Virus record (IMG/VR): IMGVR_UViG_3300042341_001047
Strand: one strand, 5' to 3'
Origin: a virus
DNA: 64,000 nucleotides
Positions within the stretch are counted from its first letter, which is position 1, and each line of letters begins with the position of its first letter. The notes beneath the pieces were generated by a model. It was not told the origin of the DNA, ran no database searches, and worked only from the letters and a program-made list of their open reading frames with translations. Positions 20,296 through 63,284 of this stretch are shown one piece after another. A program made the position numbers and the translations under genes.

Positions 20296-20631
20296 TTAAT
20301 ATAGTTTACCTGTTTCTAAATAGTAGGTATTATTTGTAGTTATCATTTCAAATGTTTCGTGTATTGATTCACATTTTACCATAAATGATTTTACATCTTC
20401 ATCAGTTAAATCAAACCACTCACCATTTACTTTTTTAGTTTTAAATGTTCTATGTAGTTGTGATTCTATTTTTGTTCCCCATTTTGACTTGAAAGAATTT
20501 ATAACATATAGTTCAGAACCATTACCCGTCTTTAACTCTTTAATTCTTTTAGAGACTTCTCTTCTTGTATAACCTATTTTATACAATCTTCTTCCTTCAA
20601 ATTCAGCACATATTAAGTAAATATTAAACAT
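20296..20631 (-). CDS. GIY-YIG superfamily (T5orf172-type) protein
   Basis: IYLI...YKIGYT..V.KRIKELKTGN...IESQLH...NGEWF. Confidence 0.85.
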   Translation of the reverse strand: MFNIYLICAEFEGRRLYKIGYTRREVSKRIKELKTGNGSELYVINSFKSKWGTKIESQLHRTFKTKKVNGEWFDLTDEDVKSFMVKCESIHETFEMITTNNTYYLETGKLY

Positions 20632-20661: not shown

Positions 20662-20907
20662 TCACCAGATTTGTGGGAAGTTAGTTGGTCCTTTTGGAGT
20701 AGAAGTTATAATAACATTAGGAACATCTATTCCAAATATTTTACCTATTTTTATTTTTCTTAAATATCTTTTAGAATATTCAACACCTGATGTATCTTTT
20801 TCAATGAAGTGAATACCTGGTCTCACATATCTACCTATTCTGTTCATTTGATTTCTTCTTTTTACTTCTTCTTGTTTTCTTGTGAGTTTTAGATGATTCA
20901 GCTCCAT
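20662..20907 (-). CDS. tagged mini-protein carrying a terminase coupling-motif fragment
   Basis: RKIKIGKIFG followed by VIITSTPKGPTNFPQIW. Confidence 0.65.
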   Translation of the reverse strand: MELNHLKLTRKQEEVKRRNQMNRIGRYVRPGIHFIEKDTSGVEYSKRYLRKIKIGKIFGIDVPNVIITSTPKGPTNFPQIW

Positions 20908-21328
20908 ATTTATAATCTAAATAGAATAAAGTACCTGATGGAGCAGACATTGGAGTTACTCCTTTTTTCATCAACTCTTTATATTCTTCATCATCTTCTA
21001 ACTTCTTTTCAGTAAATTCACCACCTTCAATAACAGCTTCAATTTTACCATCACGATTTTCAGAATTTACTCTACTTTTTACATCATCAATTTCTTCTTT
21101 TGATGCGAATCCTATTATTTCATTGGACATTAATTTTGATGATACTTTCATAGCCATTGGTAGTAAACTTGGAAACTCTTCAGTTTTAGTTTCTTCTAAT
21201 ATTTGATTTGATTGATTTTCGGCTAACTGAGCTAAATTGTCTAATTGAGATCCAGTCATACCCATAGACCCTAAGATAGGAGCCCATTTTTTCATTAATT
21301 CTTCTTTATTTGGTTGTTTCATAAACAA
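20831..21328 (-). CDS. tagged fragment of T4-type major capsid protein (N-terminal part)
   Basis: LMKKWAPIL, AENQ, LLPMAMKV, GVTPMSAPSGTLFYLDYKYG; internal RDGKIEAVI. Confidence 0.7.
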   Translation of the reverse strand: MFMKQPNKEELMKKWAPILGSMGMTGSQLDNLAQLAENQSNQILEETKTEEFPSLLPMAMKVSSKLMSNEIIGFASKEEIDDVKSRVNSENRDGKIEAVIEGGEFTEKKLEDDEEYKELMKKGVTPMSAPSGTLFYLDYKYGAESSKTHKKTRRSKKKKSNEQNR

Positions 21329-21367
21329 AAAAACTTTTCTTGTTATAGAAAAGTTTTTGTTTTTAGT

Positions 21368-30000: not shown

Positions 30001-32240
30001 GAAAAAGTAGTTGACATTAAAACACTAACTGACTCATCCATAGGAGTATTAGTATAAAACTGGAATGTTTTTTGTCTATCACTCCAATAAGTGATCCAAT
30101 TTGTTTCAGATTGTGTCATAAAACTTGGAGCAGTTGCTGAAATAATAAGTGGTTCAAACGCTAAATAAGAACCAACAAGAGATGTATCACTAAAGGTCAA
30201 TGAGTTTGGAAGTCTATAATCACCAGCATCTGTAAAGAAGTTTAATTTACTAGCAATATCATAATCCAATACCAATAATTTAGACTTTAATTTCTCTTCA
30301 AAAGTAGGATCTAAAACATTAAAGTTTAATACACTATATGTAGATGATTGTAATAGTGATGTATTACCACATATTATCAATTCACTACCGTCATAATCAA
30401 AAATTTCATTAGGATAAGTAACATATTCAAAAGTAGCCGCTGTTAATCCAACAGTTTTATTTGAATAAGAACTACCTGTTCCTAAATATTGAAAGTTATT
30501 AATATCGAATGAGAAAATCCCATCTTGATTAGTGACATTATCAGTACCTGTAAAATAAAAATAATCTGTGTTTTTTCTTCTTGTAATACTTCTTATATCA
30601 CCATAATAATTTGAAAAGTCAAAATAAATAAAGTCAGTTCCTAAATCAGAGAATGAACTATTAATATCATAAGCTATAATATTACCATTATCAGTAGCTA
30701 AGAAAAGTAAATCTTTCTCAGTTGGTATTGAATAAGTTGAATATGAGTAAGAAGCTGCCCAAGTTGTTAACTTTGTTTTATAAATATCATTAATATTATC
30801 AACTAAAACATATTCATCTTCTTCATCATTTATCTTAGATATTCTTCTTTTATAAGCCACCCAACCGTCAATACTATCAACCATCTCAATCAAAACTCCT
30901 GTATTACCTGCTATAAAAAAGCTAGTAGCTGTTGAAAATAAAACTTTATTATAATTATAAGAATTAAAATCATCTAATTCAATTCTTGTCCAAGTATAAC
31001 CACCATTTTTAGTAACTAAAATCGTATTTAATTCACCAACAATAACCCCTCTAAGATCATTAAAAAATGACACTGAATAAATATTTGTCTTTATTATTTG
31101 AGGTTGTAAGGAAGTAACATCTTCTATTTTTATTCTTTCTATTTCAAAGTCGTGTTTTCTTACTTTTAGTAAAGTATTACTATCACCACATATCCAGTAG
31201 TATTGAGATGTCTCTGATATACCTCTTAGATTTACTTTATACTTATTTTTGATAATATTTGACTTACCTTCTTGTGTATTTAGAATAACTCCAAATTCAC
31301 CTACTGATATGGTTCTTGTAGGAATAGTATATGTTATATTTTCAAAAGTATATGATTGTGTTCCATTTTTTATAACATCAAAATAGTTTATTTCAAATAA
31401 GTTATTATAATCAACTCTGTTTCTTAAAATCCAATTTTTCTTTTCTTTGAATTCAATTGGTTGACTAAGTGCAGTAGTTGGATAAAAACCATCTAATAAT
31501 CTAGATAGATGAAGTTGTTTACCAGCATTGTTAGTTCCTAATTTAACATTAGTGCTAAACCTAATACATTTTTTATAATCATCAAGAATTATATCTCTTA
31601 CTAGTTTACCACCTTGATAAGTATAAATACCATTCTCTTCATTATAATATTGATATTCAATAGTAGCTCCAAGGTCTAAAGTGATTGTATATCTACCAGT
31701 AAAATAAATATCTGGGTCAGTACTATTTAATAAAGTAACATTTGTAACTTGATCTTTTACTAAAACTTTATGACCTTCTTTAAGTCTAATATCATCAATA
31801 TAATAAGGATCTGTAACTAATGTAAGGTCTATTTGTTCTGTTGTAGCCACATCAACATAGTGATAGTTTTTTAAAGAATCTTTAATTAATCTAGATGGTG
31901 TAAATAAGTTTTTCAGAGTTAAACCATATTCTGATACAGATTTGTTATAAAAGTCATAAGAACTATCATTTGTGATTTGAGAGGCATCTTGTGGTGGTAT
32001 AGTAGATATACTATACGGAGAACCTATTATTTGTGGTATATACCAATTTCTAAATTGATACTCTTCTATAATATCATAAATATTACTTAAATCATTAACT
32101 GGTAGATATGTAGCACCACTTAAACACTTAGAGTAAAGTCTTGTAGAACTAAGTTCTTGTTTTAGATAATTAAAGTCACTCTTTGTTAACTTATCATCTG
32201 TTGATGACCACTTATTAAAATCACTATTGTATTTCCACAT
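27078..32240 (-). CDS. large tail/baseplate-associated protein (fibre-like N-terminus, beta-propeller repeats, GxWxx solenoid)
   Basis: VDVATT...LKEGHKVLVKDQ...ENGIY; VGELNTILVTKNGGYTW; GTWNNGTWNNGRWYDGTW repeats. Confidence 0.7.
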   Translation of the reverse strand: MWKYNSDFNKWSSTDDKLTKSDFNYLKQELSSTRLYSKCLSGATYLPVNDLSNIYDIIEEYQFRNWYIPQIIGSPYSISTIPPQDASQITNDSSYDFYNKSVSEYGLTLKNLFTPSRLIKDSLKNYHYVDVATTEQIDLTLVTDPYYIDDIRLKEGHKVLVKDQVTNVTLLNSTDPDIYFTGRYTITLDLGATIEYQYYNEENGIYTYQGGKLVRDIILDDYKKCIRFSTNVKLGTNNAGKQLHLSRLLDGFYPTTALSQPIEFKEKKNWILRNRVDYNNLFEINYFDVIKNGTQSYTFENITYTIPTRTISVGEFGVILNTQEGKSNIIKNKYKVNLRGISETSQYYWICGDSNTLLKVRKHDFEIERIKIEDVTSLQPQIIKTNIYSVSFFNDLRGVIVGELNTILVTKNGGYTWTRIELDDFNSYNYNKVLFSTATSFFIAGNTGVLIEMVDSIDGWVAYKRRISKINDEEDEYVLVDNINDIYKTKLTTWAASYSYSTYSIPTEKDLLFLATDNGNIIAYDINSSFSDLGTDFIYFDFSNYYGDIRSITRRKNTDYFYFTGTDNVTNQDGIFSFDINNFQYLGTGSSYSNKTVGLTAATFEYVTYPNEIFDYDGSELIICGNTSLLQSSTYSVLNFNVLDPTFEEKLKSKLLVLDYDIASKLNFFTDAGDYRLPNSLTFSDTSLVGSYLAFEPLIISATAPSFMTQSETNWITYWSDRQKTFQFYTNTPMDESVSVLMSTTFSYSSVSTSNTISSITGSASQISYLAPMITLATQSRYDSQGLPVISAPTSPYDIYIYDYLMVYKVTTSYPVSVGDVIQFNSSVVDGQFVVNRVETLSGRNYIYMFTDFNGNIIKELQSTTYSITLTNLNRYQTIDELTYRFNEHPIGNAYKLEYSDSYGNVLSSTSSILKMSADFNNLTSYYNLATNVIIGGNYSEMKYTSGFLNFGYSPTYNLLSYLEGINGFGDLNPTFYATKEYLAMPEYRNIPLGSLTASTAYIDYNGMTASYDLNSQGNKILFGNDLYLEWNSIFINTFVDVNINGSSTYTTEKLLVMDKYYDEVQEAYVIEFHKRLNFVLGDTAILSGTLDIVSRRYLSQISEDLQELNNIQRTKGKTNSWKDQGLFNYESYENELNFKIPTDSYAKILLSDANTVSKLSAIIYVDYKNELAMNITRLAKEYSIPILNTSQTGIGSVIYVPGKLYISCSQKHELITGDGVNLEFTGGTGSSQQLNQQYFGYHPVIKVTDYDFVVDIDYGTTPLLGNDDGYVRYTRQDPFLNYQPIDLIDYGADQRGKQSIELTVENLKLSGSVYSLIDIDYDKYRYRLVDGLNLETISLSYPWILEAEISGAIIGLGTEELVWYKGTWECGRWFGGTWHSGVWMSGDWYGGTWNSNKIDDRILSVSVDTKTVDKEMSIWYTGRWYTGTWNNGTWNNGRWYDGTWNNGIWYKGTWNDGVWNNGLFQGGIWILGTWNTGIFNCDSEPAYWLDGNWNGGDFENGMWYNGNWQQKNGESRFGTKSFNSRTSTWQAGNWVSGSFYSELNRNSDGQLDVSDKHKYSIWKTGKWLSGEWYGGIAYNMDWKLGTWYGGILEDIQVVGVDTVNNTFTLNGIFKFNIGDDIYIIDNQIGGTYSIYGSNSAPGRYKVLFTEEDNINETTTIYVNYNLSGTSINLVETNLRVVSKFTNLNWKSGIWTNGLFDTGLWEGGIWYNGVFEATWM
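27855..27985 (-). repeat. 15-bp-period coding tandem repeat (GxWxx pentapeptide)
   Basis: Repeated ccattattccaagta-like units. Confidence 0.75.
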
Positions 32241-63016: not shown

Positions 63017-63045
63017 AAAATCCCACTTAATAAGTGGGATTTTTT
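63017..63045. terminator. bidirectional intrinsic terminator
   Basis: aaaatcccactta-a-taagtgggattttt. Confidence 0.8.
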
Positions 63046-63284
63046 ATTTCTATAGTTCCGTAAAAGTTATTATTTATAATCTTTTTAGAGTATCTACTCA
63101 TAATTGATTTACTTGGTGAGAATTCATCTTTAACATCTAAACCTAAACCAAATATCTTATTAATCTTTCTTTTTCTACTTACATTCTTAGAAGTATATCC
63201 AGATATAACAGAAGTGGTTGTCAATGGAATATAAGGAGCAAAAACATAACCTTGTTCTAAATTACTTTTCTTTCCTATTATCAT
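63027..63284 (-). CDS. tagged fragment of T4-type major capsid protein (C-terminal part)
   Basis: GYVFAPYIPL...[RKRKINKIFG]...FSPSKSIMSRYSK...FYGTI. Confidence 0.72.
   Translation of the reverse strand: MIIGKKSNLEQGYVFAPYIPLTTTSVISGYTSKNVSRKRKINKIFGLGLDVKDEFSPSKSIMSRYSKKIINNNFYGTIEIKNPTY

Follow-up and report, generated by a model that had tools for sequence, protein, structure and literature searches.

The first 64,000 nucleotides (nt) of the IMG/VR virus record IMGVR_UViG_3300042341_001047 (175,660 bp), hereafter called the window, carry on the minus strand an open reading frame (ORF) whose product is a small non-capsid protein composed of two kinds of sequence: a copy of the N-terminal part of a T4-type major capsid protein (MCP), namely the delta helices, the N-terminal arm (N-arm) and the first strand-turn-strand, and a helical hairpin bearing a short peptide tag that recurs on other small proteins of the same virus. 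The closest named relatives of the record are the uncultured 'huge phages' LR745206.1 and LR756502.1, with genomes of 635-642 kb. We propose, at a probability of about 45%, that the protein is a mimic of the MCP N-terminal arm (the bait) that is tied by the tag (the handle) to a common partner.

The ORF spans window positions 20831-21328, with 165 codons counted from a TTG, and a sequence-only reading of the window had taken it to be a capsid fragment of 165 amino acids (aa) starting at this codon. Both the start and the label had to be revised. The TTG at 21328 lies inside a conserved hairpin and U-run and would add two residues to the protein, and all homologues start at the ATG two codons further on; we therefore place the gene at 20831-21322 with 163 aa, and the TTG start is probably not used. 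Residue numbers throughout refer to the 163-aa form counted from the ATG. Nor is the ORF a broken piece of a longer gene, since it belongs to a large family under selection. Family protein P0001 (163 aa) is 100% identical to the ORF product, and a word-based search recovered 724 close homologues of around 160 aa, the best 120 of which are nearly all 152-169 aa long. A HMMER scan of 1.84 billion representatives gave 322 clusters at 50% identity, 142 of them with an E-value (E) of at most 1e-10. Among the 150 clusters listed of the 322, all lengths fall within 46-236 aa, and the end of the capsid-like part is conserved across the 322 clusters; a length-restricted search found no relatives of 322-2000 aa, which is weak evidence. 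The pairwise ratio of nonsynonymous to synonymous substitution rates (dN/dS) over residues 1-141 was 0.18-0.47 against six close orthologues and was lowest in the C-terminal capsid-like segment (0.04-0.26 against 4/6 of them). The ORF is a real gene and represents in this record a large family that selection maintains, and both its capsid-like part and its helical insert have been kept in this way. The parts of the gene are given below in window coordinates.

20831..21322, minus strand: whole gene, 163 aa plus stop codon (20831-20833), from homologue starts and dN/dS.
21203..21313, minus strand: delta-region copy, residues 4-40 (KKWAPILGSMGMTGSQLDNLAQLAENQ), from BLASTP and hhalign; modelled as two helices.
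21110..21175, minus strand: N-arm copy, residues 50-71 (FPSLLPMAMKVSSKLMSNEIIG), equivalent to MCP residues 90-110 (GQNLLPVAMKIAAQTIGLDLV), from hhalign.
20963..21109, minus strand: insert, residues 72-120, 49 aa; no MCP counterpart, and its removal joins the MCP-like blocks.
21029..21058, minus strand: internal tag, residues 89-98 (NRDGKIEAVI), near the C-terminal end of a long helix.
20903..20962, minus strand: C-segment, residues 121-140 (GVTPMSAPSGTLFYLDYKYG), equivalent to MCP residues 111-130, from hhalign, Pfam Gp23 and HMMER to gp23.
20834..20902, minus strand: basic tail, residues 141-163 (..HKKTRRSKKKKSNEQNR), from the sequence and the homologue alignment.

The sole full MCP of the record is a T4-type protein of 583 aa encoded elsewhere (L001:1450-3201(-); Pfam Gp23, 95.5 bits), so that the comparison with the genome's own MCP, which had been suggested as a check, leaves the ORF as a separate, stand-alone copy of the N-terminal region. 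BLASTP against this resident MCP aligned ORF residues 7-40 with MCP residues 7-40 (E 3e-6) and ORF residues 123-141 with MCP residues 111-129. In a profile-profile comparison (hhalign) of the ORF family alignment (A1) with an alignment of 15 megaphage MCPs (A2), ORF residues 4-71 matched MCP residues 6-110 (97.9%, E 5.8e-13), and the 20-aa C-segment GVTPM...YKYG on its own matched MCP residues 112-129 at the collinear place (E 8.9e-5). When the 49 insert columns were removed, the score rose from 92 to 111 and the match became contiguous from ORF position 5-92 to MCP residues 7-131 (98.8%, E 1e-16), while the insert by itself gave no hhalign match to the MCP (E 0.72). These alignments establish homology between the ORF product and residues 6-131 of the resident MCP, and the collinearity of its capsid motifs with a gp23-type MCP, as first noticed by eye, is upheld. 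Among reference profiles, phrog_138 (major head protein) matched the ORF at E 1e-5, and Pfam Gp23 (PF07068) matched residues 123-155 at 19.1 bits (E 9e-4), below the 24.4-bit cut-off, with coverage of profile positions 26-58 of 376 or about 9%. T4 gp23 was the best match in a PDB sequence search, although not significant by itself (E 0.21); the collinear stretches are ORF 3-41 with gp23 3-44 and ORF 120-142 with gp23 113-135, and the C-segment (residues 121-140) is equivalent to gp23 113-132.

Residues 50-71 correspond to the N-arm segment just ahead of the first core strands, and in the alignment of 110 family sequences P55 in this segment and Y134 and D136 in the C-segment are nearly invariant. 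In T4 gp23, cleavage removes residues 1-65; the flexible residues 66-105 look towards the scaffolding core of the prohead, the ordered part starts with L106, and residues 132-160 form the first insertion-domain linker (PMC9546572). Given this layout, the copy would end approximately where an MCP would leave the N-arm and the first strand-turn-strand. Judged by profile scores, the ORF was not copied recently from the resident MCP, and its capsid-like segment matches the Pfam Gp23 consensus better than that MCP does: Pfam Gp23 scored 18 bits on the 48-aa C-terminal piece of the ORF, found no match in the equivalent 46 aa of the resident MCP, and scored 11.8 bits on the first 145 aa of that MCP. 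Two other origins of the ORF were rejected. A split or frameshifted MCP, with the 81-aa ORF next to it as the continuation, does not fit, because the 81-aa ORF is a separate conserved gene, 322 clusters share the end of the ORF, and the search at 322-2000 aa returned no longer relative. A fragment of a second MCP or of a vertex paralogue was discarded because the complete 634,780-bp genome LR745206.1 has one full MCP and otherwise small pieces only.

The insert at residues 72-120 is the best conserved part of the family. R90 is the sole invariant column of the 110-sequence alignment, N89 is nearly invariant, and a motif of the NRDGKIEAVI kind was found in 123/149 family representatives. The sequence-only reading had described an insert of about 50 aa that contains RDGKIEAVI and splits the capsid stretch DI.G/VQPM, and this was borne out by its length of 49 aa and by the contiguous match obtained once it was removed. 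That reading had also called RDGKIEAVI a tag. In the record, C-terminal tags of the [RK]xx[RK][ILVM]xx[ILVMF][ILVMFYW] type, such as IRDKKIDQIFNK, NRDYKIEQILNK and QRDIKIDNILDG, are present in 17/208 called ORFs (~8%), and the shared tag motif is NR[DE]xKI[DE]xI[LIV]. In the ORF the tag occupies residues 89-98 of 163 and is thus not at the extreme C-terminus. Scored with a matrix of 12 C-terminal tags of the genome, the window's own motif reached 5.2 bits, at about rank 58, which is unconvincing alone. The reverse test was decisive at the level of the family: a matrix that drew on no sequences other than the internal motifs of 111 distant members (consensus QENRDRKIDSILEG) was scanned over the genome ORFs and gave 8 matches of at least 10 bits against 0.05 expected from shuffles, and 12 of the 20 top non-self matches end within 3 residues of the C-terminus of proteins that are otherwise unrelated. 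Therefore, the internal motif is the same element as the C-terminal tag, a claim that holds for the family but is weak when the ORF's own sequence is taken by itself. Other internal matches to the motif were found in the 81-aa neighbour of the ORF and in two of the additional MCP pieces described below, one of 258 aa (25.0 bits) and, weakly, one of 85 aa.

The place of the insert is correctly given for the window, inside DI.G/VQPM, but varies among family members. It lies between ...NEIIGF and GVTPM in the window ORF, after AVKPIGG in the syntenic orthologue of LR745206, and before TIGxDLVSVxPM in P0146, P0163 and P0268; among the classified representatives, VxPM precedes the insert in 47 and follows it in 40. 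These places would correspond to the boundaries between the helix, the first strand and the second strand of the MCP segment, and their variation among loops fits a handle that is tolerated in any loop of the bait. The delta part is missing in about half of the classified members, which begin just before LLPxAMKV. An orthologue at L011:4007-4426 (IMGVR_UViG_3300032288_004964) has lost residues 20-45 of the delta-like part and kept the remainder, which fits a dispensable delta part, as in the many members without it. Some members have two or three tags (P0261, P0128 and P0239), and some, for example P0239, copy the megaphage-type MCP closely. The stop after YKYG with a basic tail is true of the ORF, but the tail is retained in one subclade only and is replaced elsewhere by GGTSS.. 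or by short acidic ends; HKKTRR[SA]GKKHKKK recurs in the distant members P0121, P0123, P0125, P0148 and LR745206.

Structure prediction with AlphaFold2 from a shallow alignment in a first run was uninformative, with a predicted local distance difference test score (pLDDT) of 50, and a model from 110 sequences reached a pLDDT of 77.8 with a predicted template modelling score (pTM) of 0.40. This model has helices at residues 6-18, 24-38, 75-99 and 112-120, and the remainder is coil. The two helices of the delta copy (6-18 and 24-38) have a pLDDT of about 80, and in the insert, at a pLDDT of 90-97, helix 75-99 with the tag is connected by a loop to helix 112-120, which gives a helical hairpin. 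For the N-arm segment at residues 41-70 the pLDDT is 53-55, and the C-segment is modelled as coil; in isolation, the capsid-like part is predicted to lack an ordered structure. A fold search of the model against PDB and BFVD returned no match. As modelled, the ORF product of 163 aa lacks the P and A domains and is unable to adopt an HK97 fold, in agreement with the earlier remark that 165 aa do not suffice for that fold.

Besides the ORF, the record contains four further MCP pieces, and the ORF is flanked by two small genes downstream and by a hairpin upstream. These features are listed below; in the record (G000), window coordinates equal C1 coordinates plus 209.

L002:1450-1665, minus strand: MCP piece of 71 aa, Gp23 profile 132-185 (40 bits), with a C-terminal tag.
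L003:1258-2007, minus strand: MCP piece of 249 aa, Gp23 profile 174-301, with a C-terminal tag.
L005:1201-1977, plus strand: MCP piece of 258 aa, Gp23 profile 184-305, with an internal tag-like motif.
Window 63027-63284, minus strand: MCP piece of 85 aa, Gp23 profile 306-354, with a weak internal tag-like motif.
Window 20662-20907, minus strand: next gene, a chimera of 81 aa with a probable start at 20847, from sequence comparison; conserved beside the ORF in most loci.
Window 20296-20631, minus strand: T5orf172/MUG113 gene (GIY-YIG-like), 111 aa, Pfam E 5e-20, with its own copy of the 8-mer AATATATA 5 nt upstream.
Window 21323..21362, minus strand: hairpin and U-run between the stop of the upstream gene and the ATG of the ORF, folding free energy -12.1 kcal/mol, z -3.9.

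Together with the ORF (profile 26-58), the four pieces tile most of the Gp23 profile within 26-354. The 71-aa piece matches Pfam Gp23 at 4e-10, yet it has no BLASTP match to the resident MCP. In the 81-aa chimera, whose probable ATG (20847) is overlapped by the last 17 nt of the basic-tail segment, the N-terminus IGRYVRPGIHFIEKDTS matches the N-terminus IGKYKRPGIFIEEFDNS of the resident 1306-aa sheath protein (G000:C1:146022-149942); the sheath-like part is followed by a tag-like RKIKIGKIF and then by a putative terminase-like end, IITSTPKG..NFPQIW, a resemblance pointed out by an earlier reader. Because of the four tagged MCP pieces and this sheath/tag/terminase-like chimera, we regard the ORF as one member of a wider design.

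Synteny is retained down to a 40%-identical orthologue in LR745206.1, where the order is genes for ~900-aa, 320-aa and ~100-aa proteins, the ORF, a small tagged chimera, T5orf172, a 90-aa tagged protein and, further on, gp46. The T5orf172/MUG113 gene, 200 nt downstream of the ORF, keeps this place in all syntenic loci. In the loci that were read, the family never lies within the module of portal, protease/scaffold and MCP genes, and its neighbours are small tagged genes, gp46, GreA-like or NusG-like genes, or glycosyltransferases. A locus search with alignment A5 added five new loci of distant members, and a search for related loci with P0134 or P0239 found none. In one locus (L009:5635-8429, IMGVR_UViG_3300015608_002982) a gp46/SbcC-like gene is interrupted just past the Walker A loop (GNNGAGKS) by about 2 kb encoding a 513-aa protein and a Hint-like segment that ends in ...SHN, after which comes SSLLDSF; an intein or a homing-endonuclease insertion would account for such an arrangement. 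A 670-aa translational GTPase (GTP_EFTU domain, E 1.5e-65) was noted in LR745206.1 at 31157-31969 (-).

Upstream of the ORF, the hairpin core CTTTTCTATAAnAAGAAAAG is unique within the window and invariant in 7 loci, including that of the 40%-identical orthologue in LR745206.1. The hairpin may act in termination, in RNA stability or as a translational operator. A sigma-70 and terminator scan showed no enrichment. The 8-mer AATATATA was found in 42/95 non-coding upstream regions against 1.8 expected, at two sharply defined distances of 4-5 or 19-28 nt before the ATG (for example at window 21691(-), 23418(-) and 20644(-)), and is probably a phage promoter, in which case the class at 4-5 nt implies leaderless mRNAs. 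It precedes genes whose leaders, of the MK[YI][LI]KK[YF]xE type, resemble the T4 capsid-targeting sequence (CTS), as well as large structural genes and the MCP operon, and it was found on none of the 17 C-tagged genes and not on the ORF. CTS-like leaders of this kind (MKYLKKYNE / MIKKYIEF) are present on the three genes that precede the ORF, two of which have their own AATATATA at 4 nt, and the hairpin and U-run stand between these genes and the ATG of the ORF.

If the protein is a capsid-arm mimic on a handle, the capsid-like bait would bind a factor that normally reads the N-terminal arm of unassembled MCP, and the tag would dock the resulting complex onto a reader common to all tagged proteins. 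The N-terminal region of T4 gp23 faces and contacts the scaffolding core (PMC9546572), its N-terminus directs fusion proteins to GroEL (PMC3012670), and the Gol peptide, described as the most conserved part of the protein, sets off the abortive-infection protease Lit through its binding to EF-Tu (PMC3014915). Since these are the partners of the gp23 arm in T4 (scaffold, GroEL, EF-Tu/Lit), the partner that we favour is a host factor or sensor that reads this most conserved MCP peptide. Within the mimicry proposal, such a host sensor or host factor is a reasonable but still tentative choice, the phage's own head-assembly machinery is a lesser possibility, and the MCP of a competitor phage is an unlikely target. 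Cpn60/Cpn10, sought as a link to a GroEL-targeting role, were found neither in G000 nor in LR745206.

Several observations weigh against the mimicry proposal. The insert splits the bait inside the Gol-equivalent stretch and might destroy an interaction of the EF-Tu/Lit type. The bait does not track the resident MCP, so that a decoy for sensors of the phage's own MCP is not straightforward. The position of the ORF directly downstream of genes with CTS-like leaders and AATATATA would suit a prohead-associated role, the pTM of the whole-protein model is only 0.40, and the family is absent from the cultured phages in a collection of 50,697 records. A broader version of the proposal, which we consider doubtful, is that huge phages keep a library of small proteins, each showing a piece of a core phage protein on the shared helical handle and intercepting host pattern-recognition immunity. 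The library would comprise pieces of the MCP, sheath, terminase, portal and polymerase, as immunity senses such proteins (Lit/Gol, CapRel and Avs families); once captured, the sensors would be delivered by the handle to a single hub encoded by the phage, and the ORF would be the Gol-region member.

The protein might instead serve the head itself, with the delta and N-arm parts joining the scaffolding core or the shell interface of the prohead; it would tune the assembly of a very large capsid or be packaged, perhaps processed by the protease, and the tag would be a core- or capsid-targeting helix. We consider this rather unlikely. The three CTS-leader genes just upstream of the ORF bear AATATATA, a motif also present on structural genes, and a possible processing site can be pointed to: the cleavage rule of the T4 prohead protease is L/I-x-E, and I-L-E at residues 41-43 of the ORF occupies the same place as I-N-E in the MCP, with the delta-less members starting right after it. 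In T4, residues 1-105 of gp23 are turned towards the scaffold and touch it, and mutants in this region have an altered head length (PMC9546572). However, the gene was never seen in the portal-protease/scaffold-MCP module, divergent members sit among small tagged genes beside GreA-like or NusG-like genes, a terminator-like hairpin separates the ORF from the upstream genes, and the ORF and the 17 C-tagged genes all lack a AATATATA of their own. The same tag also occurs on terminase, sheath and polymerase pieces, and a role confined to the head would hardly explain this.

The preference of the bait for the canonical sequence over the resident one raises the alternative of a weapon against competing phages, in which the bait would cap or add onto the MCP of co-infecting canonical T4-like phages, or titrate the assembly factors of such phages, and would thereby poison capsid assembly in them but not in the resident phage. 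The bait would have retained a canonical T4-type sequence no longer present in the resident MCP, for which the Pfam Gp23 scores speak (18 bits against no match), and the 71-aa piece likewise matches Pfam (4e-10) and not the resident MCP by BLASTP. This difference, however, may simply reflect faster divergence of the megaphage MCP, members such as P0239 closely copy the megaphage-type MCP, and the sheath N-terminus copied in the neighbouring chimera is the resident one, which shows that 'foreign' baits are not the general rule; we regard the weapon as improbable. Least probable by far is that the ORF is a decaying remnant of a partial MCP duplication, made for example via a T5orf172-type endonuclease, or a chance resemblance. 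A T5orf172/MUG113 gene does lie 200 nt downstream, the Pfam match falls below the gathering score and the PDB match to gp23 is not significant, but the profile-profile E-values of 6e-13 to 1e-16, the similar lengths of the 322 clusters, in which the capsid-like part has a conserved end, and the dN/dS well below 1 effectively exclude this explanation; moreover, the insert and tag are the most conserved part, and synteny extends to the 40%-identical orthologue.

Among known systems, the ORF product is close to the N-terminal region of T4 gp23, with its delta piece (1-65), N-arm and Gol region, which we take to lie at about residues 93-122; the Gol peptide would correspond to the conserved gp23 stretch that leads up to and includes GVQPMNSPTG. 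By alignment the ORF product appears collinear with gp23 3-44 and 113-135, including the Gol-equivalent stretch. It differs from the Gol/EF-Tu/Lit system in being a stand-alone protein of 163 aa in which this stretch is split by the 49-aa tag-bearing hairpin and is therefore not contiguous, unlike the 29-residue Gol peptide (PMC3014915). With the Gp23 family (PF07068; HK97 fold; PDB 6uzc and 7vs5) it shares homology over the first ~130 residues, and its best Pfam, PHROG and PDB matches are all MCPs, whereas it stays below the Pfam cut-off, covers only profile positions 26-58 of 376 and lacks the P and A domains and the HK97 fold.

Peptide address tags are known from the CTS of T4 IPI-III and Alt, from C-terminal clamp-binding tails and from encapsulin cargo-loading peptides. 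The record resembles these cases in that one short peptide is common to many unrelated small proteins of one virus (17/208 ORFs), which suggests one common reader. The tag NR[DE]xKI[DE]xI[LIV] is unlike the T4 CTS: it is helical and usually C-terminal, and in the ORF it is internal. The ORF also differs from the internal proteins with a CTS in its MCP-like N-terminus (KKWAPIL), which is unlike the leaders of the three upstream genes. With the other tagged mini-proteins of the record it shares the motif and the helical tag, and it differs from them by the internal position. MicroProteins, which are small truncated paralogues acting as dominant-negative partners of larger proteins in plants and animals, offer a further parallel, as the ORF appears to keep an interaction-type segment only, without the functional domains of the larger protein; unlike them, it is viral, bears in addition a docking tag common to other proteins and is part of a set whose pieces tile the parent protein. 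No paper describing such a design was found in literature searches on tagged capsid fragments or decoys.

Even as a common accessory of head assembly, the ORF would define a family of 322 clusters without a Pfam model. If the mimicry proposal is true, viral accessory proteins would be built by grafting a universal docking helix into any loop of a short and strongly conserved piece of a core virion protein. The ORF would be the clearest case, since its bait is the best-studied T4-type capsid peptide, its handle is internal and the position of the handle differs between orthologues. The finding would then be relevant to the sensing of capsid proteins by bacteria and to the ways in which huge phages might weaken it, or else to the assembly of very large capsids.

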